This document shows, piece by piece, positions 1,458 through 20,390 of a DNA stretch of 54,996 nt. The stretch covers positions 1 to 54,996 of the IMG/VR virus record IMGVR_UViG_3300045988_171436. One strand, 5' to 3'. Source of the DNA: a virus (lineage: Duplodnaviria; Heunggongvirae; Uroviricota; Caudoviricetes). Every line of letters starts with the position of its first letter. The stretch's first letter is position 1. The notes beneath the pieces are model-generated. The model was given only the letters and a program-made list of their open reading frames with translations. It was not told the DNA's origin and did no database searches. The position numbers and the translations under genes are program-made.

Positions 1458-1762
1458 TATTTCACCTCTTGCTGTGACATTGTTGAAAAATGGATACCAG
1501 CTCGTTGCTGCCAGACGATCCAACCGAGAGTCATATCCCATGCCATGTATTCGTTATCGCCGTTTTTTGCTCTCCGACGATCTACTAAGTCACCGAAACG
1601 CTTTTCCATGAATAATTCATAAGCTTCGCGTTCATCTGGTTCTACTTCCAGAGATAGGAGTGCGATTTCATAAGCACGGCGCTCAATATCGTCTCGCACG
1701 TCAAGGCTGCTGATACGCTCTTTAATTTCTTTAATCAGTTCTTTGTCGGTAAAAGTGGTCAT
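1457..1762 (-). CDS. Hypothetical phage protein (101 aa)
   Basis: ORF in leftward early operon, stop overlaps xis start. Confidence 0.45.
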   Translation of the reverse strand: MTTFTDKELIKEIKERISSLDVRDDIERRAYEIALLSLEVEPDEREAYELFMEKRFGDLVDRRRAKNGDNEYMAWDMTLGWIVWQQRAGIHFSTMSQQEVK

Positions 1763-2124
1763 TATGCTCCAGCCTCCGGTGCTTTTGGCATTACTGCCCA
1801 GTGAGTGATATTGACGTTTTCAAGGTCCCCGACCTGAAATGTCCACTGCCATTCTCCGGTTTCTTTTTGTCCCCAGGTGTACCAGAGAGAACGCCAGCCA
1901 ATTAGCCAGCCTTCTCCGTTAGCATCGAATAACAAAACACTTTCATTTGCTGGTGGCAGTTCAGTTGACACTGGTATTACTTTGTTTTCCTGTGCTGCAC
2001 ATTTAGCTTCAAGCGCATCGAATTTACGCACTAGGTATTCAGCATCTGTTTCATTTACTTTCAGATCTCGCGGTACACATCTCCCACGAAGAAACCCTTC
2101 CATTTCGAAAACATTCATGCGCAT
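1762..2124 (-). CDS. DUF551-like phage protein
   Basis: 120 aa, Trp-rich C-terminus ending ...ITHWAVMPKAPE as in DUF551 family (recalled). Confidence 0.45.
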   Translation of the reverse strand: MRMNVFEMEGFLRGRCVPRDLKVNETDAEYLVRKFDALEAKCAAQENKVIPVSTELPPANESVLLFDANGEGWLIGWRSLWYTWGQKETGEWQWTFQVGDLENVNITHWAVMPKAPEAGA

Positions 2125-3668: not shown

Positions 3669-4031
3669 TTAACGACCTGCTGCGCGGAGTTTTCCGTCAG
3701 GTTCACCGGCAAGAGTCAGTAACTGTCCCTGGTCTTCCTGCAGAATAGTCAGGCGACCACCGCGATTGACATACATCGGCGTTTCGGTGGTGTCTTCTTC
3801 GGAAATTTTCCCGCGGTTAGTCGGGCGAACATATGAGAGTTTGTGTTTGATTTTCACTCGGTTCTCATCAAACGGTTCGATTTCCAGGTTGAGCGAGACC
3901 TTACCTTTGGTTTTCGTGTTCATCACACCGGAAGCGACTTCACTGAGAACTGCGCCGATTTTGGTTTCAAATACGCCGCCGTCCAGCTCCCCGATAAATG
4001 CCTGCACATCAGTACTGCGTTCGCTAGCCAT
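3669..4031 (-). CDS. Hypothetical phage protein (121 aa from internal ATG)
   Basis: Protein-like sequence begins at MASERSTDVQAF...; the N-terminal extension of ORF 3669..4349 runs through a GC-rich structured region and looks non-coding. Confidence 0.4.
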   Translation of the reverse strand: MASERSTDVQAFIGELDGGVFETKIGAVLSEVASGVMNTKTKGKVSLNLEIEPFDENRVKIKHKLSYVRPTNRGKISEEDTTETPMYVNRGGRLTILQEDQGQLLTLAGEPDGKLRAAGR

Positions 4032-4499
4032 TTTGCTGCTCCTCATCATATCGACCCTGCAAGGTCGGTTAGTTTCTCCACAAAACAGAGAAGAACACCT
4101 GCGGTGACTGCCGCCCGGATGGATTGGGTTATGAGCCCGTCGTCCGGTGATGCTCTTCTCTGTTTTGTAAAAAGGACGGTACCAGCCGGAAGCAAGGGTA
4201 CAAGCTGGTACCGCCAAGACTACACACAGCATAAAGTTGTGGTGCCGGGTGCCTCCCGGTGCCTGGCGAAGGTTGCACACCAGGCGGGTGGGTATCCACA
4301 GAAGGTCGACTGTCAGCCTCAACCTTAACCCGCGTGCGCTGAGCCGCATTCACCACAACGCTAAGGATTCTCTCTGGTTGAAAATACTTAGCTGTTATGT
4401 GCCTGCTTTTAGCCACATCAGGCGAGGTGGACCTAGTTATTCCCCAACAACAAGGATTCGGTTAATCTGGTTATCCCCAACAACGCAAAAGGAAAAGAA

Positions 4500-4934
4500 A
4501 TGTCCGGTAATATCTATACGCTGTACAAATCCCACTGTGAAAATGTTGGAAAGTATCGGGGCATTGAAATCAGTGGGGTAGTGTCATCAGTCGAAATAAG
4601 CAAAGTTGAATCAAGGGCAACATTACTTACTCTTTTGGACCTTGTCTTACATGAGCACCGGAAGAAATTCGGCACTCCCTATAATCAGTTGAATGGGAAA
4701 AAGGCTCTGGTTCACCTTATTCTGATGAAGCATCACTGGATGCCAAAACAGATTAATGAGATGAAATTTGATGAACTTCTTCTTTCAATTCAGGATGAAC
4801 TCACACTTGATAAAATAAGCGTAACCGCCCAGAAATTTTTAGATTATCGAGACTGGAGATCACAAATTCATCACTTTGATGATTTTGACGAAAATGAATG
4901 GGATCCTAATTTGTCTGCACAATATCTAAAGTAA
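4500..4934 (+). CDS. Hypothetical protein (144 aa), antisense moron in early-left region
   Basis: AT-rich ORF opposite to surrounding leftward genes; own upstream direct repeats and downstream terminator. Confidence 0.5.
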   Translation: MSGNIYTLYKSHCENVGKYRGIEISGVVSSVEISKVESRATLLTLLDLVLHEHRKKFGTPYNQLNGKKALVHLILMKHHWMPKQINEMKFDELLLSIQDELTLDKISVTAQKFLDYRDWRSQIHHFDDFDENEWDPNLSAQYLK

Positions 4935-6502: not shown

Positions 6503-7046
6503 GCATCACTGGAAAGTAGAAAAACAGCCTGAGTGGTACGTGAAAGCTGTCAGAAAAACTATCGCAGCGTTGCCGGGGGGGTACGCTGAAGCTGCTGACT
6601 GGCTGGATGTAACAGAGAACGCATTATTTAACCGCCTTCGTGCCGATGGCGATCAGATTTTCCCGCTGGGATGGGCAATGATTTTGCAACGTGCTGGTGG
6701 AACTCACTTCATTGCTGACGCTGTGGCGCAGTCTGCAAATGGCGTCTTTGTGTCTCTTCCTGACGTCGAGGATGTGGACAACGCCGATATTAACCAGCGC
6801 CTGCTGGAAGTCATTGAACAGATCGGCAGTTATTCAAAACAGATTCGTTCAGCAATTGAAGACGGTGTAGTGGAACCGCATGAGAAGACAGCAATTAACG
6901 ACGAGCTGTACCTCTCAATTTCGAAGCTGCAGGAGCATGCAGCACTGGTCTACAAAATTTTTTGCATTTCAGAAAGTAATGACGCCCGCGAGTGTGCAGC
7001 TCCGGGCGCCGTGGCGTGTCGTGACTGTGGAGAAACTAACGCATGA
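6495..7046 (+). CDS. Early regulatory protein (CII/YdaT-like, tentative)
   Basis: 183 aa immediately after cro; family assignment from memory only. Confidence 0.35.
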
Positions 7047-7381
7047 ACAGTTTAACAACACACTACCGTCGCTCGCAACTGATTGCGCTTCCTGTACCGG
7101 GTGGAAAAGCGAAGGTGGAGTATTGCTATGCAGTAAATGTACCAGGTGACAGGGAAATTGTAACCCACAGCTTTGCAGAGTGGGCTGTGGGTGATTTCAA
7201 CCGGCAGAAGGAGACAGTCCTTTGCGACAAGTTAACCGCTGGTTCAAAGATCACTACGGAGTGCCCGTCAGAGTCATTCGTTGGGAGCCGGAAACACAAC
7301 GGGTTATCTACCTCCGCGAAGGCTATGAGCATGAGTGCTTCAGCCCGCTCGAACAGTTTCGTCGTAAATTCAGGGAAATAG
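7043..7381 (+). CDS. Hypothetical protein; 3' part may be out of frame (see findings)
   Basis: ATGA start/stop overlap with upstream gene; C-terminal third is low-complexity while an overlapping frame is protein-like. Confidence 0.3.
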
Positions 7382-7401
7382 AGGTCGGTCATGAGCACTA
7401 A
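7222..7401 (+). CDS. Candidate small TTG-initiated gene (59 aa) in alternative frame
   Basis: AAGGAG (7208-7213), 8-nt spacer, TTG at 7222; product ...[53 protein letters not shown]. Confidence 0.3.
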
Positions 7402-8332
7402 ATTAACCGGCTATGTATGGGATAGTTGCGCTGCATCAGGCATGAAATTATCCAGCGTGGCAATTATGGCCCGCCTGGCTGATTTCAGTAATGACGAAGG
7501 TGTGTGCTGGCCATCAATTGAAACCATTGCCCGCCAGATTGGCGCGGGGATGAGTACCGTCAGAACGGCTATCGCACGGCTGGAAGCAGAAGGCTGGTTA
7601 ACGCGTAAGGCGCGTCGCCAGGGTAACCGCAATGCGTCGAATGTTTATCAGCTTAACGTTGCGAAGCTTCAGGCAGCGGCATTTTCTCAACTGTCAGATT
7701 CTGACCCGTCAAAATCTGACGCATCAAAATCTGACCCGTCAAAATTTGATGCGTCGAAATCTGGCAAAAAAGCGGGTTTTCACCCGTCAGAATCTGGCGG
7801 GGATCCGTCAGTAAAATCAAAACATGATCCGTCAGATAAAAAAACTTCTCGTCCGGACGCTTCGCAACCGGACACGCAGACGGATGAACAGGATTTTTTA
7901 ACTCGCCATCCTGATGCGGTTGTATTCAGCCCTAAAAAGCGCCAGTGGGGAACGCAGGATGATTTGACCTGCGCACAGTGGCTCTGGAAAAAAATCATCG
8001 CCCTGTACGAGCAGGCCGCCGAATGTGACGGCGAGGTGGTTCGTCCCAAAGAACCGAACTGGACAGCCTGGGCAAACGAAATTCGCCTGATGTGTGTGCA
8101 GGATGGTCGTACTCACAAACAAATCTGCGAGATGTACAGCCGCGTCAGCCGCGATCCGTTCTGGTGCCGTAACGTGCTCAGCCCGTCGAAGCTGCGGGAA
8201 AAATGGGATGAGCTTTCCCTGCGCTTATCGCCGTCCGTAAGCACGTACACCGAAAAACGCGAAGACCCGTACTTCAAATCCAGTTACGACAACGTGGACT
8301 ACAGCCAGATCCCGGCAGGATTCAGGGGGTGA
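7391..8332 (+). CDS. Replication initiation protein (lambda O-like) containing origin iterons
   Basis: 313 aa; N-terminal winged-HTH; central SKSD repeats encoded by DNA iterons; position after cro/cII-like genes. Confidence 0.6.
   Translation: MSTKLTGYVWDSCAASGMKLSSVAIMARLADFSNDEGVCWPSIETIARQIGAGMSTVRTAIARLEAEGWLTRKARRQGNRNASNVYQLNVAKLQAAAFSQLSDSDPSKSDASKSDPSKFDASKSGKKAGFHPSESGGDPSVKSKHDPSDKKTSRPDASQPDTQTDEQDFLTRHPDAVVFSPKKRQWGTQDDLTCAQWLWKKIIALYEQAAECDGEVVRPKEPNWTAWANEIRLMCVQDGRTHKQICEMYSRVSRDPFWCRNVLSPSKLREKWDELSLRLSPSVSTYTEKREDPYFKSSYDNVDYSQIPAGFRG
7695..7850. repeat. Putative origin of replication: iteron array plus A-rich tract inside the O-like gene
   Basis: Repeated CCGTCAAAATCTGACG-type units from 7695 to about 7770, further CCGTCAG repeats, then GATAAAAAAACTT at 7835-7848. 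Confidence 0.5.
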
Positions 8333-8334
8333 TC

Positions 8335-8823
8335 ATGAGTCTGTTAAATGACGTTCAGAAATTCATTGAAGCCCATCCGGGGTGTACTTCCGGAGACATT
8401 GCGGATGCTTTTGCTGGTTACTCACGGCAGCGCGTTCTGCAGTCAGCAAGCAAGTTACGTCAGAGTGGGCGTGTGGCTCACCGTTATGAAGGGGATACAC
8501 GCAGACATTTCCCGCGCCTGACTGAGAGAGCGCAGGAGCCGGAACCACAACCAGTTCGTGAAACCAGACCTGCGCGCAATTTCTATGTCGGCACTAACGA
8601 TCCCCGGGTGATTTTGTGCCTGACCCGCCAGGCGGAAGAACTGGAGTCAAGGGGCTTATACCGTCGTGCTGCAACCGTGTGGATGGCGGCATTCCGTGAA
8701 AGCCACTCCCAGCCAGAACGAAACAATTTTCTGGCGCGTCGTGAGCGGTGCTTACGGAAAAGCAGCAAGCGCGCTGCATCGGGTGAAGAGTGGTATCTGT
8801 CAGGGAATTACGTGGGGGCTTAA
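8335..8823 (+). CDS. Hypothetical phage protein (about 162 aa)
   Basis: AGGGGG RBS 6 nt before ATG 8335; Arg-rich C-terminus. Confidence 0.4.
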   Translation: MSLLNDVQKFIEAHPGCTSGDIADAFAGYSRQRVLQSASKLRQSGRVAHRYEGDTRRHFPRLTERAQEPEPQPVRETRPARNFYVGTNDPRVILCLTRQAEELESRGLYRRAATVWMAAFRESHSQPERNNFLARRERCLRKSSKRAASGEEWYLSGNYVGA

Positions 8824-9476
8824 TGAGTAATAAATATTGCCAGGCGCTGGTGGAACTGCGGAATAAACCAGCCCATGAACTGAAGGAAGTGGGAGATCAG
8901 TGGCGCACGCCGGATAACATTTTCTGGGGAATTAACACCCTGTTTGGTCCGTTTGTTCTGGATCTGTTCACTGACGGTGATAACGCCAAATGTGCCGCGT
9001 ATTACACGGCGGAAGACAACGCGCTGGCGCATGACTGGTCAGAACGTCTTGCGGAGCTTAAAGGTGCTGCCTTTGGTAATCCCCCATACAGCCGCGCCAG
9101 TCAGCATGAGGGGCAATACATCACCGGCATGCGTTACATCATGAAGCATGCCAGTGCCATGCGTGATAAAGGCGGGCGCTATGTTTTCCTGATCAAAGCT
9201 GCCACCAGCGAAGTGTGGTGGCCGGAAGATGCAGACCATATTGCTTTTATTCGCGGGCGTATTGGTTTTGAACTGCCTGTCTGGTTTATCCCGAAAGACG
9301 AGAAGCAGGTGCCGACAGGAGCGTTCTTCGCTGGTGCTATTGCTGTTTTCGATAAGACCTGGAAGGGACCGGCAATCAGCTACATCGGGCGCGATGAACT
9401 TGAGACATGTGGTGAGGCGTTTCTGGCGCAGGTTCGCCAGCAGGCGGAAAAACTGGTCAGGGAGATGGCGGCATGA
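8823..9476 (+). CDS. Phage Dam-like N6-adenine DNA methyltransferase
   Basis: FGNPPYS motif (NPPY catalytic motif IV); TAATG stop/start overlap with upstream gene. Confidence 0.75.
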   Translation: MSNKYCQALVELRNKPAHELKEVGDQWRTPDNIFWGINTLFGPFVLDLFTDGDNAKCAAYYTAEDNALAHDWSERLAELKGAAFGNPPYSRASQHEGQYITGMRYIMKHASAMRDKGGRYVFLIKAATSEVWWPEDADHIAFIRGRIGFELPVWFIPKDEKQVPTGAFFAGAIAVFDKTWKGPAISYIGRDELETCGEAFLAQVRQQAEKLVREMAA

Positions 9477-9799
9477 CGACATTAACTCAATGCCAGCAGC
9501 AGGTGCTGGATATGCTGATTTCTTATCAGAAAGAACGTGGCTTCCCGCCAACCAATCAGGAGGTGGCTACCATGCTGGGATACCGTTCAGTGAATGCAGC
9601 GGTGGAGCATCTTCGCGCACTGGAGAAAAAAGGCGTCATCACGATAAAGCGTGGCGTGGCACGGGGGATAACGCTTCATACCGCGGTGAAGGACGACGAC
9701 AGCGAGGCGGTCGGGATTATCCGCTCACTGCTTGCCGGTGAGGAAAACGCCAGGCTGCGTGCAGCCCACTGGTTACATGAGAGGGGCCTGAAAGTATGA
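9473..9799 (+). CDS. LexA-N-terminal-like winged-HTH DNA-binding protein
   Basis: 108 aa, MTTLTQCQQQVLDMLISYQKERGFPPTNQEVATMLGYRSVNAAVEHLRALEKKGVI. Confidence 0.45.
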   Translation: MTTLTQCQQQVLDMLISYQKERGFPPTNQEVATMLGYRSVNAAVEHLRALEKKGVITIKRGVARGITLHTAVKDDDSEAVGIIRSLLAGEENARLRAAHWLHERGLKV

Positions 9800-10185
9800 A
9801 GCTGATCCTGCCTTTTCCGCCCAGCGTGAACACGTACTGGCGACACCCCAACAAAGGGGCGTTTGCTGGTAAGAGCCTGATAAGCGCGGCGGGGCGCAAA
9901 TTCCAGAGCGCGGCGTGTGCAGCAATAGTTGAGCAGTTACGTCGTCTGCCAAAACCAACGTCGGCACCTGCTTCAGTGGAGATCGTGTTGTTTCCTCCGG
10001 ATAACCGGATCCGCGATCTGGACAACTATAACAAGGCGCTGTTTGACGCCCTGACCCACGCGGGTGTGTGGGAAGACGACAGTCAGGTGAAAAGAATGCT
10101 GGTGGAGTGGGGACCGGTTATCCCGGAAGGGAAGGTCGAGATCACTATCAGTAAGTACGAGAAACCGGCGGGTGCAGCCGCCTGA
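9796..10185 (+). CDS. rusA: RusA-family Holliday junction resolvase
   Basis: 129 aa with RIRDLDNYNKALFDALTHAGVWEDDSQV acidic catalytic cluster typical of RusA. Confidence 0.75.
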   Translation: MKLILPFPPSVNTYWRHPNKGAFAGKSLISAAGRKFQSAACAAIVEQLRRLPKPTSAPASVEIVLFPPDNRIRDLDNYNKALFDALTHAGVWEDDSQVKRMLVEWGPVIPEGKVEITISKYEKPAGAAA

Positions 10186-10204
10186 TTAAGAGGAGAAACG
10201 AAGT

Positions 10205-11002
10205 ATGAATAATCTGATGGTTATTGATGGTATTGAAGTTCGTCGTGATGCTTATGGGCGTTACAGCCTGAACGATCTGCACAGGGCTGCCGGTTCTCTG
10301 GATAAACATAAGCCTGCATTCTGGCTCCGCAATGAGCAAACCGAACGTTTAATAAGCGAGTTGCAGATTTGCAACTCGGTCAATATAGCGCCAGTTAACG
10401 TTATTCGTGGCGGAAATAACCAAGGGACGTATGTCTGCAAAGAACTGGTGTATGCCTATGCAATGTGGATCAGCCCGTCATTCCATCTGAAGGTGATCCG
10501 TACTTTCGATATGGTAACCAGCACACCGGAAAAATTATCCGGGCAGGCTGCTGACAAGATGCAGGCTGGCGTGATCCTGCTGGACTTTATGCGCCGGGAG
10601 TTAAACCTGTCTAACTCTTCAGTGCTTGGTGCCTGTCAGAAACTCCAGGAGGCTGTTGGCTTACCGAATCTGGCACCGCGCTATGCCATTGATGCTCCTG
10701 CTGACGCGCCTGATGGCTCAAGCCGCCCCACGCTGTCACTGAGTGCACTGCTGAAGCAGTATGGTATCTGCCTGACAGCTAATCAGGCATATCACCAGAT
10801 GGCGAAGCTGGGGATCGTTGAACAACGCGAACGATACAGCCGTACCGCGATTAACAACATCAAAAAATTCTGGTCGCTGACGGCGAAAGGCTGCATGTTC
10901 GGCAAGAACATCACCAGTCCTGCAAATCCGCGCGAGACGCAGCCGCATTTCTTCGAATCCCGATTCCCTGAGCTGTTAAAGCTGCTCGATACCGTTCATT
11001 GA
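10205..11002 (+). CDS. KilA-N domain protein (antirepressor-like)
   Basis: N-terminus MNNLMVIDGIEVRRDAYGRYSLNDLHRAAG typical of KilA-N. Confidence 0.55.
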   Translation: MNNLMVIDGIEVRRDAYGRYSLNDLHRAAGSLDKHKPAFWLRNEQTERLISELQICNSVNIAPVNVIRGGNNQGTYVCKELVYAYAMWISPSFHLKVIRTFDMVTSTPEKLSGQAADKMQAGVILLDFMRRELNLSNSSVLGACQKLQEAVGLPNLAPRYAIDAPADAPDGSSRPTLSLSALLKQYGICLTANQAYHQMAKLGIVEQRERYSRTAINNIKKFWSLTAKGCMFGKNITSPANPRETQPHFFESRFPELLKLLDTVH

Positions 11003-12001: not shown

Positions 12002-12379
12002 TTGTGGAGAAAGTTGATGCGTGATATTCAGATGGTTCTGGATCGTTGGGGTGCATGGGCGGCGAGTGATAGTTCTGGGGTAGACTATTCGCCTATAGCT
12101 GCTGGGTTTAAAGGGCTTCTTCCCTTTACAAGCAAAACACGTCAGGCTTGTTCAGATAGTGATGCATTAATTATTGAAGGTTGTCTTGCTCGTCTAAAGC
12201 AAAAAAGACCTGAAGAACACTCGCTTCTTGTTGCCCATTACCTATACGGTATCTCTAAAAGAAAGCTCGCTAAAGCTCGCAAAAAGGATGAGAAAATAAT
12301 ACGCATTGAGATACAGATGGCTGAGGGATTTATAGAAGGTTGTCTAGCTATTCTAAATGTTAGCTTAGATATGGATTAA
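12002..12379 (+). CDS. Late antiterminator Q-like protein
   Basis: 125 aa; MRDIQMVLDRWGAWAA... N-terminus typical of small Q-like antiterminators of E. coli cryptic prophages (recalled); position before the lysis genes. Confidence 0.55.
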   Translation: MWRKLMRDIQMVLDRWGAWAASDSSGVDYSPIAAGFKGLLPFTSKTRQACSDSDALIIEGCLARLKQKRPEEHSLLVAHYLYGISKRKLAKARKKDEKIIRIEIQMAEGFIEGCLAILNVSLDMD

Positions 12380-12422: not shown

Positions 12423-12875
12423 TTATATGTGGGGTAATATCCAGTTTATTTTCCTCCAGGTACTTGCAAATGAAACTATTGATACGATCAGGGTCGAGAA
12501 ACCATATAAGGTTAGGGCGAAATCAAGTCTTACAGAGGTAATGGTGATTTTTTCATTTATAAACATAGCTATCAGCGGGAAAATACATGCTAATATTAAG
12601 GTAACTCCCGTAGATAACAGGTTATGAATAATTTTAGGTAAAATCTTGTTTTGTTTTAAAGCAAAAATAATTCCATCAGTACTTGAACTTGCAGAACTGA
12701 AGATGGAAATAGCGGCCAATACAAAACCAAACAAAATGCCTGCCACCGTAGATAACACTCCGGCTGTACTTAAGATATCAGAGTGAGCCATAGGCGCTAG
12801 GTATTTCCCAAGCACCCAAGCTAACAGCCCACTGATAACTATGTTAATTAAAACTTTAATAAGCATAATCATCAT
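12423..12875 (-). CDS. Small four-TM membrane protein (150 aa), second gene of antisense two-gene moron
   Basis: Four hydrophobic segments (about res 2-24, 38-60, 88-110, 120-140); AT-rich; 12 nt downstream of partner gene. Confidence 0.6.
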   Translation of the reverse strand: MMIMLIKVLINIVISGLLAWVLGKYLAPMAHSDILSTAGVLSTVAGILFGFVLAAISIFSSASSSTDGIIFALKQNKILPKIIHNLLSTGVTLILACIFPLIAMFINEKITITSVRLDFALTLYGFSTLIVSIVSFASTWRKINWILPHI

Positions 12876-12889
12876 CCTTAAAAATAAGA

Positions 12890-13822
12890 TCAGATTTCAT
12901 ATTGCTTTAAATACTGACCATGTTCAATTTTAGCACTGATCAAGGCAGTACGCACATCTGTTTCTTTTGCGTAGCCATCTTTTGTGTTAATGTTTTTTTC
13001 ACTGATCAGAACTTGATTGAGAAGACTCCTTGAATGAGTATTTTTAGGTTCAGTGACATTAGCTTTACGTAATAAGTGAGGAACTTTTTCTATTAATTCC
13101 TTTATTCCACTTTTTACTTCATCACTGAGATAACCACGGATTAATTTACGTTGCGATGCTCTACCTCTAAGTGATAGTTTTAAATGCGAACCGCCCATCC
13201 CAGCCATCATTTCAATCATACTTTTGGAAAATGAATTCGAAAGGTCATAATCCGTTGCGCTAAAATTACGTGGAGCGGCGAGTGTAATTTCACAGCTACG
13301 TAAAGTGCTTCCTGTTTCAAGTAGTTCTTTTACACTTTCTTTTTTCCAAATGGCCTCAAACGCTACAGGTTTGTTTTCTTCAGAAAAATTGAATAAAAGA
13401 AATGCTAAATCGGAAACTTTAGGTCCTAAATGATTTTGAGATAAAACAAGAATGTCTTTCTTATAGTAGTAAATAAAATAAGTGCGTTCGACTATATATT
13501 TTTTATCATCTAACGGAATATTGTGCTCATCCCAATTTTCATCACCAATATAAGGTAAGTGGAAACCATCACGAGAGCATGATAGATAACCAAAATAGAA
13601 CTCCGCCTGTGCGTCTTTTTCTAAGAATACAATCTTTAATTTTTTCTTATCAAACTCAGCGGTATAAGAATTTTGCGAAGGTGTAACAATGGTTGTATAC
13701 ATGTTGTCAAATGCAAGTTGTGCATTTGATGTAGTTGACTTCGTTCCTGAGGAGCTTTGGAAGAAACCGATACGCATTTTTTTTTGTTTAGTTAGTGGCG
13801 CGGAAGTGGCTGTAGTAGTCAT
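12890..13822 (-). CDS. Hypothetical soluble protein (310 aa), first gene of antisense two-gene moron
   Basis: AT-rich ORF, ATG at 13822, no motif recognised by eye. Confidence 0.6.
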   Translation of the reverse strand: MTTTATSAPLTKQKKMRIGFFQSSSGTKSTTSNAQLAFDNMYTTIVTPSQNSYTAEFDKKKLKIVFLEKDAQAEFYFGYLSCSRDGFHLPYIGDENWDEHNIPLDDKKYIVERTYFIYYYKKDILVLSQNHLGPKVSDLAFLLFNFSEENKPVAFEAIWKKESVKELLETGSTLRSCEITLAAPRNFSATDYDLSNSFSKSMIEMMAGMGGSHLKLSLRGRASQRKLIRGYLSDEVKSGIKELIEKVPHLLRKANVTEPKNTHSRSLLNQVLISEKNINTKDGYAKETDVRTALISAKIEHGQYLKQYEI

Positions 13823-14476: not shown

Positions 14477-15529
14477 ATGAAAAATACTGTAAAAATAAAC
14501 AGTGTTGATTTAATCAACGCTGATTGCCTGCATTTTATTCAGTCCCTGCCTGATGATTCCATTGACCTGATTGTTACCGATCCGCCGTACTTCAAGGTGA
14601 AACCCAACGGCTGGGACAATCAGTGGAAAGGGGACGAAGATTACCTTAAGTGGCTGGACCACTGTCTGGCCCAGTTCTGGCGGGTGTTAAAACCTGCCGG
14701 AAGCCTTTACCTGTTCTGTGGGCATCGCCTGGCATCTGATATTGAGATCATGATGCGTGAACGTTTCAACGTGCTTAACCATATCATCTGGGCGAAGCCG
14801 TCCGGACGTTGGAATGGGTGTAATAAAGAAAGTCTGCGCGCATATTTTCCTGCCACAGAGCGCGTTCTGTTTGCTGAACATTACCAGGGGCCATATCGCG
14901 GCAAAAGTGACGGCTATGCGGCAAAAGAAAGGGAACTCAAACAGCACATAATGGCACCGCTGATATCGTATTTCAGGGATGCTCGTGCCGAACTGGGTAT
15001 AACGGCAAAACAAATTGCCGAAGCCACAGGTAAGAAAAATATGGTTTCCCACTGGTTTGGTGCCAGTCAGTGGCAGTTGCCGAATGAGGCTGACTATCGG
15101 AAGTTACAGGCTCTGTTTTCCCGTATAGCGGCAGAGAAGTTTCAGGAACAACAACTGGAACAACCACACCACCAGCTGGTGGCATCTTATGATTCACTGA
15201 ATCGCAAATATTCTGAATTGCTGGATGAGTTTAAATCTCTCCGGCGCTATTTCTCCGTATCAGTCTCCGTGCCTTATACCGATGTCTGGACGCATAAGCC
15301 CGTTCAGTTCTACCCGGGTAAACATCCGTGCGAGAAACCGGCGGATATGCTCCGGCAAATAATCAATGCCAGTAGTCGACCTGGTGATCTGGTTGCTGAT
15401 TTCTTTATGGGATCCGGTTCCACAATAAAAGCAGCAATGGCGCTGGGGCGTCGGGCGTTAGGTGTTGAACTTGAGTCAGAGCGGTTTAATCAGACGGTGA
15501 AAGAGGTAAGTGAACTGGTGGGGAAATAA
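14477..15529 (+). CDS. DNA methyltransferase (N6-adenine/N4-cytosine, beta class)
   Basis: IVTDPPYF (motif IV) upstream of FFMGSGST (motif I FxGxG). Confidence 0.8.
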   Translation: MKNTVKINSVDLINADCLHFIQSLPDDSIDLIVTDPPYFKVKPNGWDNQWKGDEDYLKWLDHCLAQFWRVLKPAGSLYLFCGHRLASDIEIMMRERFNVLNHIIWAKPSGRWNGCNKESLRAYFPATERVLFAEHYQGPYRGKSDGYAAKERELKQHIMAPLISYFRDARAELGITAKQIAEATGKKNMVSHWFGASQWQLPNEADYRKLQALFSRIAAEKFQEQQLEQPHHQLVASYDSLNRKYSELLDEFKSLRRYFSVSVSVPYTDVWTHKPVQFYPGKHPCEKPADMLRQIINASSRPGDLVADFFMGSGSTIKAAMALGRRALGVELESERFNQTVKEVSELVGK

Positions 15530-15605
15530 TTCTGGTGGCCACGTTGCGTGGCCTTTTTATTTCCAACACAGCACCCGCAAATATCGCGAGGTGAGAGATG
15601 ACGAA

Positions 15606-15932
15606 ATGCCTCATAACCCAAATACCTGGCTGGACTTGGTCCAGAGCTGGTGGCGTGGAGACACACCGCTGGGTGCAGTGATTATGTCGATCGTTATGGC
15701 TGGTTTGCGCATCGCCTATTTTGGCGGTGGTGGTGGCTGGAAGCGAAAAACGCTCGAAATTCTACTCTGTGGCGCTCTGACGCTGACTTTTGCATCCGCT
15801 CTTGAGTATGTCGGATGGCCTAAATCACTTTCTGTTGCCATTGGTGGTGGGGTGGGGCTGATCGGTGTCGATGCTATTCGTGGGGCTGCAATGCGAGTAA
15901 TCGGTAACAAATTTGGTGGCTCTAAGGAGTAA
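15606..15932 (+). CDS. S: Holin (lambda S-like)
   Basis: Hydrophobic segments, AYFGGGGGWKRKT region resembling the lambda S loop, charged C-terminus; directly upstream of endolysin. Confidence 0.65.
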   Translation: MPHNPNTWLDLVQSWWRGDTPLGAVIMSIVMAGLRIAYFGGGGGWKRKTLEILLCGALTLTFASALEYVGWPKSLSVAIGGGVGLIGVDAIRGAAMRVIGNKFGGSKE

Positions 15933-15935
15933 TTT

Positions 15936-16412
15936 ATGCAGGTACTAAATTCCCAGCGTAAAGCTTTCCTTGATATGGTGGCTTGGTCAGAAGGAACGGA
16001 TAACGGACGACAACCGACACGTAACCACGGTTATGACGTTATTGTCGGTGGTGAACTCTTCACTGATTACTCCGATCACCCTCGCAAACTTGTCACGCTA
16101 AACCCGAAACTCAAGTCAACAGCCGCCGGACGTTACCAGCTTCTTTCACGCTGGTGGGATGCTTACCGTAAACAGCTTGGCCTGAAAGATTTTTCTCCAG
16201 AAAGCCAGGACGCTGTAGCTCTGCAGCAGATTAAAGAGCGTGACGCTTTACCGATGATTGACCGTGGCAATATTCGTCAGGCAATCGACCGTTGCAGCAA
16301 TATTTGGGCTTCATTGCCCGGTGCTGGCTACGGTCAGTATGAACACAAGATCGATAGTCTGATTGCCAAATTCAAAGAAGCTGGCGGGGTGGTTAATGAA
16401 ACTTCGCTATAA
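15936..16412 (+). CDS. R: Endolysin, lambda R-like lytic transglycosylase
   Basis: Near-identity over long stretches to lambda R as remembered (QRKAFLDM.AWSEGTDNGRQ.TRNHGYDVIVGGELFTDYSDHPRKLVTLNPKLKST.AGRYQLLSRWWDAYRKQLGLKDFSP). Confidence 0.9.
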   Translation: MQVLNSQRKAFLDMVAWSEGTDNGRQPTRNHGYDVIVGGELFTDYSDHPRKLVTLNPKLKSTAAGRYQLLSRWWDAYRKQLGLKDFSPESQDAVALQQIKERDALPMIDRGNIRQAIDRCSNIWASLPGAGYGQYEHKIDSLIAKFKEAGGVVNETSL

Positions 16413-16788
16413 GCTGGTTATTTCTGCTTTCCTCCTGACTTTATTCGGTTCTCTCGTCTGGTCAGCTAACCATTACCACAGCAAATACCAGCGCGAAAAG
16501 AAACGTGCTGATGAGGCTGTACAAAATGCCGAATCGGCAACCGCTATTACCAATAACGTCCTGCAATCACTGCAAATCGTCAATACAGTTCTGGAGGCTA
16601 ACCAGCATGCAAAACAGCAGATCGCACTGGAGTCACAGAGAACCCAGGCTGATATCAAAGTGGCTGTTGCGGATGATGATTGTGCTGTACGCCCTGTGCC
16701 TGCTGCCGCTGCTGACCGGTTGCGGAAGTACGCGAACAGTTTACGTGAGCATTCCGAAGACTCCACTACCAGTCAGCTTGACTTCTGA
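16396..16788 (+). CDS. Rz: i-spanin (Rz-like)
   Basis: N-terminal TM (LVISAFLLTLFGSLVW), coiled-coil-like remainder, overlaps endolysin stop. Confidence 0.65.
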   Translation: MKLRYKLVISAFLLTLFGSLVWSANHYHSKYQREKKRADEAVQNAESATAITNNVLQSLQIVNTVLEANQHAKQQIALESQRTQADIKVAVADDDCAVRPVPAAAADRLRKYANSLREHSEDSTTSQLDF

Positions 16789-16921
16789 TACACCTGTACC
16801 GTTTATACCCAACCCACTGACGTATGGTGCAAGTCTTGATTTGAATGTAAGTTTGTTATCCGCGTTGGCTCAATGTAATAGGGATAAGTCAGATATCAGA
16901 ATCATTGATAATCAAAATTGA
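16673..16921 (+). CDS. Rz1: o-spanin (Rz1-like lipoprotein), overlapped with and extending past Rz
   Basis: MMIVLYALCLLPLLTGC lipobox followed by Pro-rich segment, +1 frame inside the Rz 3' end. Confidence 0.5.
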   Translation: MMIVLYALCLLPLLTGCGSTRTVYVSIPKTPLPVSLTSDTPVPFIPNPLTYGASLDLNVSLLSALAQCNRDKSDIRIIDNQN

Positions 16922-17125
16922 TGTATATTTTTATCGTCATGTAGATAACGAACAAGGTATTCCTCTGATACGTATTCGTTGAATACAGGTCATGGGTAGG
17001 CATTGCAATATCGCTTCGAAATTATCTGTGATAATGCTCTTAATTTTGAATGTATGTATTTGGGAAAAGAGATAAAGTAATAGTCTAATTAATGGAGATA
17101 TCCACAAAACACAAAAGGGACTATT

Positions 17126-17632
17126 ATGAGACCAGATCAATTTTTCTATCCAGATACTTTTACCTTTAATTCATCCACCTATTATGGTCAACGTGACTCA
17201 TCTAAAGGCCGATTGTATATTCCTATTGAAAGTGACTTATGCCCATTTAATATCGGCGATATCATTGTACAAAAAATGGTCGACAGGGAAAGACTATTTG
17301 AAGTGCTTGATTACGAGGTGCAAATTAGTCTCGAGGTTGGTTGCCCTGGCTACTCACATTTGGCGGTATTGATAGTGAAGGCATTGGATGTAAAAGAGAA
17401 GCCGAAGCAGATTACGACCCATTTGACGTTTAACGGTGCTATTAATGCTGGTGGTGATTTTCAAGCCGGTAATGATAATTCGATCACAAAGAATATAACC
17501 ATTCAACAACTACATGATGCTATAGAGCATTGCAATGATCCAGAGGTTAAAAGCCTTTGGCAAAAGCTATTGGAAAATCCGACGTTTGCTTCAATTGCTT
17601 CAATATTGGCAAAAAGTGCTTTAGGACAGTAA
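17126..17632 (+). CDS. Hypothetical protein (168 aa), AT-rich moron between lysis and packaging modules
   Basis: ORF preceded by about 330 bp of AT-rich non-coding DNA and followed by a terminator. Confidence 0.5.
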   Translation: MRPDQFFYPDTFTFNSSTYYGQRDSSKGRLYIPIESDLCPFNIGDIIVQKMVDRERLFEVLDYEVQISLEVGCPGYSHLAVLIVKALDVKEKPKQITTHLTFNGAINAGGDFQAGNDNSITKNITIQQLHDAIEHCNDPEVKSLWQKLLENPTFASIASILAKSALGQ

Positions 17633-17640
17633 TTCATCAA

Positions 17641-17664
17641 GCCCCATTCAATATGGGGTTTTTA
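17641..17664 (+). terminator. Rho-independent terminator
   Basis: CCCCA-TTCAATA-TGGGG followed by TTTTTA. Confidence 0.6.
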
Positions 17665-17689
17665 TGCTTATTACAAAGAGTTTTCTTCA

Positions 17690-18040
17690 ATGCCACCACG
17701 AATCCCAAAATCCTGCCGCGTTCGCGGCTGCCGCCATACCACTACTGACCCGTCAGGCTACTGCGAAAGCCACAAAAACGAAGGCTGGAAGCAATACAAG
17801 CCAGGACAATCCCGTCATCAGCGCGGCTACGGTTCGAAATGGGATGCTATCCGTGAACGTGTACTGAAACGTGACAAAGGTTTATGTCAGTTATGTCTGC
17901 GTGCCGGTGTGGTGCGTGAAGCGAAAACCGTTGACCACATCATCCCTAAAGCGCATGGCGGCACTGATGCCGACTGTAATCTGCAGAGTCTGTGCTGGCC
18001 GTGTCATAAGGCGAAGACGGCCCGTGAACGGTTGAAGTGA
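17690..18040 (+). CDS. HNH endonuclease (packaging-associated)
   Basis: CQLCLRAG...VDHIIPKAHGGTDADCNLQSLCWPCHKAKT HNH motif; immediately upstream of terminase. Confidence 0.8.
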   Translation: MPPRIPKSCRVRGCRHTTTDPSGYCESHKNEGWKQYKPGQSRHQRGYGSKWDAIRERVLKRDKGLCQLCLRAGVVREAKTVDHIIPKAHGGTDADCNLQSLCWPCHKAKTARERLK

Positions 18041-18126: not shown

Positions 18127-18165
18127 ATACCCGCGAAAAATGAAATTTAACCAGGAGTGCCGCAT

Positions 18166-18660
18166 ATGGCTGGAACGGCGGGGCGTTCCGGGCGTCGCCC
18201 CAAGCCAACGGCGCGCAAGGCGCTGGCCGGAAACCCCGGCAAGCGAGCCCTGAATAAAGATGAACCTGTTTTTACGCCCATCAAAGGTGTTGAGCCACCG
18301 GAGTGGTTCGCTGAAGAAGATCTCCCTCTCGCCACGATCATGTGGCAACTGACAACCAAAGAACTCTGCGGTCAGGGCCTGCTGTGCGTGACTGACCTCG
18401 CGGTGCTTGAGCGGTGGTGTGTGGCCTATGAGTTCTGGCGACGTGCCGTGAAAAATATTGCCAGACAGGGCAACACCATCACCGGTGCAATGGGCGGTAT
18501 GGTCAAAAATCCTGAGCTGACCGCCAAAAAAGAACAGGAGTCCGAGATGAGCAGTACGGGGGCAATGCTCGGACTCGACCCCAGCAGCCGCCAGCGTCTG
18601 ATTGGCCTGGCGGGGCAGAAGAAAGCCACTAACCCGTTTCTGAAAATTATCGAATCATGA
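18166..18660 (+). CDS. Terminase small subunit
   Basis: AGGAG RBS at 18153-18157; Arg/Lys-rich N-terminus; precedes large terminase. Confidence 0.65.
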
Positions 18661-20390
18661 GCCGGAAATCTTACCCCAACGTAAATGCTGCCAATCAGTA
18701 TGCCCGGGATGTCGTTCGCGGAAAGATTGTGGCCTGCCAGTTTGTGATTCAGGCCTGCCAGCGCCATCTTGATGACCTGATGGCGGAAAAAAGTAAGTCG
18801 TTTCGTTACCGCTTCGACAAGGACCTGGCTGAACGGGCCGCCAAATTTATTCAGCTGTTGCCGCATACCAAGGGTGAGTGGGCATTCAAACGGATGCCCA
18901 TCACGCTGGAGCCGTGGCAGCTCTTTGTGATCTGCTGTGCGTTTGGCTGGGTCAATAAAGGTACCCGGCTGCGCCGCTTCCGGGAGGTGTATACCGAAAT
19001 CCCCCGTAAGAACGGCAAATCGGCAATCTCTGCCGGTGTCGCCCTGTATTGTTTTGCCTGTGATAACGAGTTTGGCGCGGAAGTGTATTCCGGTGCCACG
19101 ACAGAGAAACAGGCGTGGGAAGTCTTTCGCCCGGCGCGACTGATGTGTAAACGCACACCCATGCTGACGGAAGCGTTCGGGATTGAGGTTAACGCCTCAA
19201 ACATGAACCGTCCGGAGGATGGCGCGCGGTTTGAGCCGCTGATCGGTAACCCCGGTGATGGTTCATCACCCCACTGTGCGGTGGTGGATGAATATCACGA
19301 GCATGCCACCGATGCACTTTACACCACGATGCTTACCGGGATGGGGGCGCGACGTCAGCCACTGATGTGGGCCATCACCACCGCCGGGTACAACATTGAG
19401 GGGCCGTGCTACGACAAGCGGCGGGAAGTTCTCGAGATGCTCAACGGTTCGGTACCCAACGATGAACTGTTCGGGATCATCTATACCGTTGACGAAGGCG
19501 ATGACTGGACCGACCCGCAGGTGCTGGAAAAAGCCAATCCAAATATTGGCGTGTCGGTTTATCGCGAATTTTTGTTAAGTCAGCAGCAGCGTGCGAAAAA
19601 TAACGCCCGTCTGGCAAACGTCTTTAAAACAAAACACCTCAATATCTGGGTGTCGGCGCGTTCGGCGTATTTCAACCTGGTGAGCTGGCAGAGCTGCGAG
19701 GATAAATCACTGACCCTTGAGCAGTTCGAGGGGCAGCCGTGCATTCTGGCCTTTGACCTGGCGCGTAAGCTGGATATGAACAGCATGGCGCGACTTTATA
19801 CCCGCGAGATTGACGGTAAAACGCATTACTACAGTGTGGCCCCGCGTTTCTGGGTACCGTATGACACGGTGTACAGCGTCGAGAAAAATGAAGATCGACG
19901 GACAGCCGAACGCTTTCAGAAATGGGTGGAAATGGGCGTTCTGACCGTTACCGATGGTGCGGAAGTGGATTATCGCTACATCCTCGAGGAGGCCAAAGCG
20001 GCGAACAAAATCAGCCCGGTCAGTGAGTCACCCATCGACCCCTTCGGGGCGACCGGGTTGTCACATGACCTTGCTGATGAAGACCTGAATCCCGTCACTA
20101 TCGTCCAGAACTTCACCAATATGTCCGACCCGATGAAAGAGCTGGAAGCGGCGATTGAATCGGGACGTTTTCATCATGACGGCAATCCCATCATGACCTG
20201 GTGTATCGGCAACGTGGTCGGCAAAACCATTCCGGGTAACGATGATGTGGTGAAGCCCGTCAAAGAGCAGGCGGAAAACAAAATCGATGGTGCAGTTGCG
20301 CTGATTATGGCGGTTGGCAGAGCCATGCTGTACGAGAAAGAAGACACGCTGTCTGACCACATTGAGTCCTATGGGATCCGCTCGCTTTAA
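18657..20390 (+). CDS. Terminase large subunit
   Basis: 577 aa with Walker A-like PRKNGKSA and C-terminal nuclease-like region; canonical position. Confidence 0.85.

Follow-up and report, generated by a model that had tools for sequence, protein, structure and literature searches.

We examined a stretch of viral DNA of 54,996 nucleotides (IMG/VR record IMGVR_UViG_3300045988_171436), which we refer to as the window. It carries an SfV-like temperate prophage whose early genes are lambdoid, whose head is of the HK97 type and whose tail is contractile and Mu-like. Between the spanin gene Rz1 and the gene for an HNH endonuclease lies a short AT-rich segment with one open reading frame (ORF) of 168 amino acids (aa), which an earlier note on this DNA had described as a moron, that is, a gene with its own promoter and terminator inserted between phage genes. 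The segment is made up of the following features.

16895 to 17659, plus strand: the cassette proper, the segment without a counterpart in relatives (blastn breakpoints; outer limits 16881-17689 against SfV)
16922 to 17125, plus strand: AT-rich non-coding leader of 204 bp, G+C about 0.31, with no ORF of consequence
17027 to 17035, plus strand: candidate extended -10 promoter element, TGTGATAAT, a weak match to the consensus
17126 to 17632, plus strand: the 168-aa ORF, stop included, with an ATG start; PHROG 5789
17639 to 17663, plus strand: intrinsic-terminator-like hairpin (17639-17661) with a T-run to 17663

The ORF is as the earlier note had it, on the plus strand with its ATG preceded by a Shine-Dalgarno-like site (AAGGGA at 17115-17120). 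The non-coding DNA ahead of it is indeed AT-rich, but it is 204 bp long and not about 330 bp, because the older figure was counted from the Rz stop codon and Rz1, in another frame, reaches 16921. Base composition sets the whole region apart: the G+C content is 0.30-0.40 from about 16800 to 17700, the DNA to either side having 0.50-0.59, and it is 0.30-0.42 for the cassette itself, unlike the surrounding phage genes. Rfam gave no match in 16700-17800. The rho-independent terminator, formerly placed at 17641-17664, was found as a hairpin of 9 pairs and a T-run at 17639-17663 (-12.4 kcal/mol, z-score -3.2), and 2 of 200 shuffled sequences folded as well. Of the moron layout, then, the gene and the terminator are in place, whereas the promoter is so far a candidate extended -10 element. 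TGTGATAAT is the only site to pass a combined -10/-35/TG score in the 230 nt upstream of the ORF, and three other loci (L012, L035 and L036) have an extended -10-like element of this kind, TGTGAT(A/T)AT or TGTGAT(T/C)AT, ahead of their homologues, looser versions of it being present in L008 and L009. A promoter belonging to the cassette is plausible on these sequence grounds.

We used the corresponding position in related phages and prophages to establish whether the gene belongs to the phage core. The genes that border the cassette are listed here.

16363 to 16788, plus strand: Rz (i-spanin), with which the regular genes of the lysis cassette end (weak Pfam DUF2570 match; annotated DUF2570/Rz in relatives)
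about 16673 to 16921, plus strand: Rz1/LysC o-spanin lipoprotein gene, overlapping Rz in another frame (lipobox LLTGC in ORF 16505-16921)
17690 to 18040, plus strand: HNH endonuclease, the first gene of the packaging block (Pfam HNH, E 5e-15)

Against SfV, the blastn breakpoints fall at 16880 and 17690, homology resuming exactly at the HNH start codon, and in SfV itself the slot is empty, with only 26 bp between Rz1 and the HNH gene. Against E. coli CFSAN064036 and Salmonella phage 118970_sal3 they fall at 16894 and 17660; both have the same flanks, and their slot holds an ORF of 184 aa, which we considered as a relative of the 168-aa ORF and rejected, there being no similarity. On the left, the break falls within the final codons of Rz1, so that the C-terminal tail of Rz1 differs from one slot variant to the next: aligned with the SfV and CFSAN064036 proteins, the tails diverge after DKSDIR, and about ten codons at the end of the gene belong to the replaced segment. 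Of 60 E. coli records sampled evenly from the 879 that matched, 22 matched both flanks, and these gave at least eight length states of the slot.

483 bp, empty: 9 of 22 records
752 bp: 1 of 22
959 bp, with a GrlR-family regulator: 4 of 22
1026 bp: 1 of 22
1119 bp: 2 of 22
1145 bp: 2 of 22
1201 bp, the window's cassette: 2 of 22
1382 bp: 1 of 22

Several of the other states hold hypothetical proteins that differ from one another (hits H44-H65 in E. coli genomes). The window's cassette was present in 29 of 5,426 complete E. coli genomes, at least one flank being found in 871, and all 29 copies were chromosomal, single-copy and at least 98.8% identical. The 1.2 kb used as query is 99.8% identical to Escherichia phage vB_EcoM-689R6 and, to the same degree, to prophages that include one beside tRNA-Thr/proA in E. 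coli D3; the window itself contains no tRNA genes. A gene conserved in syntenic position across lytic relatives would, according to the earlier note, have implied a core phage function. What we found is a slot that is polymorphic and can be empty, and a cassette that is rare.

Outside this slot, relatives of the gene are both scarce and mobile. Close relatives of the 168-aa protein form only 22 clusters in a set of 5.8 billion proteins, and a scan of one genome per species returned none, the family being too rare to be represented there. Besides this slot, homologues occur in temperate phages in five or more other kinds of place, frequently on the strand opposite to their neighbours. In six loci (the window, L008, L009, L034, L035 and L036) the gene follows spanin genes, and at least three different endolysin types occur among the lysis cassettes concerned. 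Three kinds of homologue lie on the opposite strand: one in Serratia prophages, with a primase on one side and an SLT-domain protein on the other; one in a podophage-like contig, where its neighbours are TerL and portal; and one, full-length but more distant, flanked by the capsid and primase genes in Klebsiella phage P12620-1 (PQ569648, 101495-102007), which has the canonical VQIG core. A further homologue adjoins the abortive-infection gene BstA at a prophage end. The homologous genes have a G+C content of 0.39-0.43, with flanks at 0.50-0.56 in five of the six loci examined, and in five of six homologous cassettes a hairpin and T-run directly follow the stop codon, the Serratia copy having a short T tail only. 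In L008 some 4 kb of unannotated ORFs (76, 120, 279, 487 and 195 aa; 6579-10308) lie between the homologue and the terminase, and the four of them that were scanned had no PADLOC match.

The copy beside BstA records how such a cassette moves. Comparison of its upstream sequence (L012, 606-689) with that of a post-spanin copy (L035, 3915-4000) shows that it has kept about 42 nt of a non-functional Rz1 3' end (ending in IRKLDAPPIPYADLV and the stop), which shows that about 85 nt of upstream sequence moved along with the gene to a site away from lysis genes. This stretch holds the recurring extended -10-like element. The dead remnant identifies the post-spanin site as the place from which the gene came, and it delimits the mobile unit.

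These contexts bear on the suggestion that the product is an accessory lysis factor acting with the holin, endolysin and spanins, for example in lysis timing or envelope disruption. In six loci with differing lysis cassettes the gene does come straight after Rz/Rz1 and on their strand, and the C-terminal helix of its product, described below, could be membrane-active. However, the gene is missing from the majority of relatives that share the lysis cassette (9 of the 22 two-flank records, for example, have nothing in the slot), homologues lie far from lysis genes and on the opposite strand in four other contexts, the protein has no signal peptide or lipobox, and the Rz1 remnant beside BstA makes the post-spanin site a matter of origin and not of functional requirement. 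We regard a role in lysis as very improbable.

Thus the empty slot in SfV, the unrelated cargo in other phages, the rarity of the cassette and the mobility of its homologues all support the moron reading, and we conclude with high confidence that the region is a horizontally exchanged, single-gene accessory cassette in an SfV-like E. coli prophage, occupying a polymorphic slot between Rz1 and the HNH gene. The moron concept goes back to Juhala, Hendrix and colleagues, and familiar examples are bor and lom of phage λ and the morons of HK97. Like the morons of lambdoid phages, the window's cassette is an extra single gene in a temperate phage, between genes that are adjacent in relatives, with deviant base composition, a terminator and a putative promoter. 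It differs from them in that its protein matches no described moron product and its expression in the prophage is a prediction only. As a moron the locus is ordinary. The slot, on the other hand, is a busy site of exchange in SfV-like prophages, and with at least seven alternative cargos it is a useful place to seek accessory functions.

The neighbours that the earlier note had named (Rz/Rz1 upstream, HNH and terminase downstream) were confirmed by ORFs, Pfam matches and annotated relatives, the counterpart of Rz1 being annotated lysC in E. coli D3.

15510 to 15932: holin, upstream of the ORF
15936 to 16412: endolysin, upstream of the ORF
18157 to 18660: small terminase subunit, downstream of HNH
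18657 to 20390: large terminase subunit, downstream of the small subunit

With its own terminator and a probable extended -10 promoter, the cassette could be transcribed from the repressed prophage without transcription entering the packaging genes. That Q-modified late transcription passes terminators is established for lambdoid phages, and by analogy it would read through the terminator of the cassette. A further terminator-like hairpin, a strong one of 7 pairs (6 G-C) with a T-run behind it, is found at 15537-15553 in the interval from the methyltransferase gene to the start of the holin gene, where SfV has a putative terminator annotated at the equivalent position, so that late transcription must pass at least two terminators. 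On the minus strand at 12423-13822, between the Q antiterminator (12002-12379) and the methylase and lysis genes, there are two further ORFs, one of 150 aa without a family and one of 310 aa with a Pfam DUF6731 match (E 2.5e-11); neither has a PADLOC match. This looks like a second accessory slot, since the E. coli D3 relative has different ORFs there.

The earlier note had called the function of the 168-aa protein unknown, and family searches left it so: PHROG 5789, itself of unknown function, was the sole match (E 1.2e-79), with none in Pfam, NCBIfam or PADLOC-DB 2.0. A CBM-like Pfam match at E 0.14 was dismissed. We therefore turn to its predicted architecture, modelled by AlphaFold2 with the family alignment.

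17126 to 17395, plus strand: N-terminal beta-barrel domain, aa 1-90 (six-stranded; predicted local distance difference test score, pLDDT, about 76-92)
17417 to 17500, plus strand: conserved unmodelled segment, aa 98-125, TFNGAINAGGDFQAGNDNSITKNITIQ (core DFQAGNDN at 17456-17479)
17501 to 17629, plus strand: C-terminal helical module, aa 126-168 (three helices: 126-134, 139-150 and 152-165)

The stretch between the two folded parts was not modelled with any confidence (aa 91-118, pLDDT below 50). It is not a sloppy linker, however, for aa 98-125 rank among the two most conserved parts of the protein and surpass the barrel: the mean frequency of the commonest residue is 0.79 over aa 98-125, and 0.88 in the core, against 0.66 in the barrel, and F112, Q113, A114, G115 and N118 are invariant in the clade to which the window protein belongs. 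From its sequence, the protein is without signal peptide or lipobox. Its last helix is a small-residue, moderately hydrophobic tail, NPTFASIASILAKSALGQ, with a Kyte-Doolittle 17-mer maximum of 0.83 (0.85 for its clade), and the tails of distant relatives reach a mean of 1.54, and up to 2.2, being as hydrophobic as transmembrane helices.

The structure-based homology search that had been proposed as a check, run with Foldseek against BFVD and the PDB, returned nothing significant. In a structure comparison of the barrel, head-closure proteins scored best by little, PilZ and flavin-binding split barrels scoring almost as well. The structural matches of the barrel are similar to the connectors of SfV-like and HK97-like phages. 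PilZ, a barrel that binds cyclic di-GMP, was rejected as a reading because its RxxxR and (D/N)xSxxG signatures are absent. The other resemblance raises the notion of a core structural gene, a head-closure protein or stopper similar to SPP1 gp16. This is hardly credible: identity to head-closure proteins is 6-15%, the PilZ and split barrels have near-equal scores, Foldseek gave nothing significant, the head module already has a head-closure gene (by the annotation of the E. coli D3 relative), and the presence/absence pattern contradicts it, the gene being absent from SfV and most related prophages.

Another way to view the protein is through its C-terminal half. A profile search of 1.84 billion representative sequences gave 77 proteins, many of them matching in this half only, and the N-terminal regions to which this one module is fused are of four or more unrelated kinds: the beta-barrel, another that is rich in beta structure, a helical one and a Cys-rich one. 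The shared module, approximately fNIGsisG--[VIFLM]Q[VIAL]G[NSD]xN-Q--NITiqeLvekvA-S-D-EAKslLkkLLeN-TVAsivGAGasaLLgLL, stops at the C-terminus of the protein. A 4,708-aa relative with 13 matched stretches (P0025) proved to be an artefact, in which about 35 weak matches of 0-6 bits each to adhesin repeats had been summed, and a profile of the C-terminal module run against the set of 5.8 billion proteins returned mostly short fragments and added little. One IMG/VR viral contig (L036) carries two members of the superfamily with different N-terminal domains, at 1623-2114 (minus strand) and 4001-4504 (plus strand), one ahead of the holin and one behind the spanins. Their motif cores are NVQVGNHN and DFQAGSVN, and the two might cooperate or cross-seed. 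This contig is the only one of 37 loci with a second family member, the two being 1.9 kb apart and not adjacent, and no second motif-bearing ORF was found in six frames of the 55-kb window by profile or regular expression.

In the relatives, the conserved segment that precedes the helices resembles the RHIM, the amyloid-forming motif of RIPK1 and RIPK3 that serves as a switch when animal and fungal cells signal for death. The core of the relatives is [VI]Q[VI]G(N/D)xN, and in the majority of distant relatives the tetrad is VQVG, VQIG or IQIG. When 68 thirty-residue motif peptides were compared with Pfam, 14 matched RHIM (best E 1.3e-4), five matched the HET-S repeat below threshold, and no other family matched more than two; against the RHIM (PF12721) gathering score of 20 bits, the peptide of one relative scored 21.0 and three more scored 18.7-19.2. 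A profile of the motif peptides searched against 177,635 PDB sequences gave five hits at E<=10, all of them chains of RIPK1 or RIPK3 RHIM fibrils (best E 0.05). The reversed profile gave nothing, and the column-permuted profile one unrelated hit and no RIPK. Because these order-scrambled controls lose the RIPK matches, composition alone does not explain them. For the window's segment the link to the RHIM, judged by sequence, is one of positional homology with the [VI]Q[VI]GNxN of its relatives and not of direct match. The 168-aa protein is a member of an undescribed modular family centred on a RHIM-like segment, the evidence for this clade in particular being computational and indirect.

An unchanging C-terminal module behind N-terminal domains that differ from protein to protein is what characterises sensor/effector conflict proteins, and it supports a defence function over that of a plain moron. 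The three-part model, the conservation of the unmodelled segment, the RHIM matches of the relatives with their controls and the relatives' hydrophobic tails support it too, and three considerations of context count on the same side. Proteins that consist of the C-terminal module only (L016-L020, in E. coli, called at 50-94 aa, some cut by contig ends) lie at the far, cargo, end of islands with integrase, AlpA, D5-primase and SSB genes, which look like satellites of the P4 or phage-inducible chromosomal island (PICI) type; one homologue stands beside BstA; and amyloid anti-phage signalling is established in E. coli prophage hotspots, in the form of Bab/Agp. An accessory cassette that carries a defence protein is accordingly the best explanation of the locus as a whole, and we put it forward tentatively. 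The narrower proposal that the product is a prophage defence protein switched on by motif-driven polymerisation is possible, though doubtful. The product would be a cytoplasmic protein of three parts, sensor, switch and effector, that guards the lysogen against other phages. Its variable part, the N-terminal beta-barrel, would serve as the target-binding or sensor domain; a component of an invading phage, possibly oligomeric, would bind this domain and bring copies together; the RHIM-like, amyloid-type segment would then polymerise; and the clustered C-terminal helices would act on the membrane or on another target and so stop the infected cell.

Several results weigh against one part or another of this explanation. 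With regard to the cassette, a consensus scan found no sigma-70 site on the plus strand of the leader, and 6 of about 11 contexts directly follow spanin genes, which could point to a role in lysis. With regard to defence, no PADLOC model matched the 168-aa protein or ten diverse relatives, searches of the literature by accession or PHROG identifier gave no mention of the protein, and the neighbouring ORFs tested in homologous loci had no PADLOC match except BstA, so that guilt by association is weak. With regard to the switch and effector, the tail of the window protein is too weakly hydrophobic for a transmembrane helix, the RHIM matches of the relatives lie at the curated threshold or a little under it and concern a short Q/N/G-rich stretch, and the core of the window clade, DFQAG(N/S)xN, has F-Q-A-G and not the (I/V)-Q-(I/V/L/C)-G tetrad of the RHIM. 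The window peptide matched no Pfam family at E<=1, RHIM included, and a RHIM match for the clade by its own profile had to be rejected, since that profile found no RHIM or RIPK sequence. The amyloid, membrane and defence properties of the product are all predictions from sequence and model.

The clade's failure to find RHIM sequences by profile or any Pfam family by peptide, the relatives' mostly sub-threshold scores, the tail unlike a transmembrane helix and the want of a match to defence families also speak for an ordinary moron without an amyloid-type switch. Here the conserved segment would be no more than a linker or strand, taking on order within a soluble oligomer or on binding a partner, the likeness to the RHIM would be convergence in a short Q/N/G-rich stretch, and the product might be a regulator, a lysogenic-conversion factor or toxin-like. 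Against this stand the loss of the RIPK hits in the scrambled controls, the position of RHIM as by far the commonest Pfam hit among the 68 peptides, a segment more conserved than the folded domain though predicted to be unstructured, and the constant module with its exchanged N-terminal domains. We consider it somewhat unlikely that the gene is a moron of this plain kind.

How the defence proposal relates to known systems depends on the precedents for amyloid signalling in bacteria. Bab/Agp is a two-gene amyloid-signalling abortive-infection system found in E. coli prophage hotspots (bioRxiv 10.1101/2024.11.07.622273), and is the only amyloid-signalling defence shown in E. coli. Like the window's gene, it is located in a prophage or defence hotspot of E. 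coli; in each case the motif is short, conserved, rich in Q, N and G and placed beside a small helical module with a hydrophobic helix, and the proposed logic, activation of a membrane-directed effector by polymerisation, is the same. In Bab/Agp, however, the motif is shared by two proteins, an effector with an N-terminal Bell-type helical domain and the motif at its C-terminus, and a 1,094-aa TPR/GreAB-C/PIN sensor, whereas the window has one gene, with the motif before the helices and a beta-barrel as N-terminal domain; the two are likened by layout and not by the sequence of the BASS11 motif. BASS motifs in general occur in Bell-NLR gene pairs, BASS3 being RHIM-like, and have been reported only in multicellular Actinobacteria and Cyanobacteria (bioRxiv 10.1101/2020.01.06.895854). 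The RHIM-like motifs so far known from bacteria thus belong to Bell/NLR pairs of two genes, and the species concerned are filamentous and multicellular. The resemblance here is that the core of the window protein's relatives, in a context of about 20 residues, matches PF12721 and the RIPK1/RIPK3 fibril cores. The differences are that the window's family consists of a single gene found in Enterobacteriaceae, on phages and islands, and as a reported fragment in Acinetobacter, that the arrangement of one motif on both an adjacent effector C-terminus and a sensor N-terminus does not occur at the window, and that in place of a Bell/HeLo-type N-terminal helical domain, to which no structural match was found, there is a beta-barrel.

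HET-S/HET-s of Podospora anserina is comparable in that it joins a membrane-acting helical part and an amyloid-forming switch in one polypeptide, although HET-S does so with a HeLo domain of about 220 aa and a C-terminal beta-solenoid motif of two repeats. The proposed logic is that of HET-S and Bab/Agp alike, realised in the window protein in one polypeptide with the order of domains reversed. BstA, the immediate neighbour of one homologue, is likewise a single-gene, prophage-borne accessory that acts by abortive infection, but with its KilA-N and BstA_C domains it has no sequence or domain similarity to the window protein.

The same precedents allow the opposite role, that of a phage counter-defence decoy whose amyloid-type motif would co-polymerise with, and block, a host amyloid defence such as Bab/Agp. 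Viral RHIM decoys are an established strategy (PMC7375649). The herpesvirus RHIM proteins M45, ICP6 and varicella-zoster virus (VZV) ORF20 block RIPK3 in such a manner. The gene is phage-encoded, amyloid-signalling defence exists in E. coli, and a diverged and possibly 'capping' motif (FQAG) with a weakened tail would suit such a function. Yet the moron layout, and positions beside BstA or in satellite cargo, fit expression in the lysogen better than early anti-defence, and the relatives retain a full effector-like hydrophobic tail for which a pure decoy would have no need. We judge a decoy improbable.

The defence proposal can be carried one step further, to an undescribed class of single-polypeptide amyloid-switch immune proteins on temperate phages and satellites of unicellular Gammaproteobacteria, which would combine interchangeable N-terminal sensors with a RHIM-type motif and a membrane-inserting helix. 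The window clade would be a derived branch of this class, in which the barrel, with its head-closure-like fold, might bind the 12-fold connector of an invader and polymerisation be nucleated by the induced proximity, and in which the FQAG core and the weakened tail might make for a less toxic effector or for a capping or regulatory variant. In this extended form the proposal is unlikely, though its consequences would be considerable. If it is true, bacteria would have, in a single gene, their counterpart of RIPK3/MLKL or HET-S, and the class would extend amyloid-type switching to conflict between phages in unicellular hosts. It would also provide, in a protein of about 170 aa, a genetically tractable model for sensor-triggered polymerisation of a motif, for which the canonical VQIG and the diverged FQAG forms offer a ready-made comparison.

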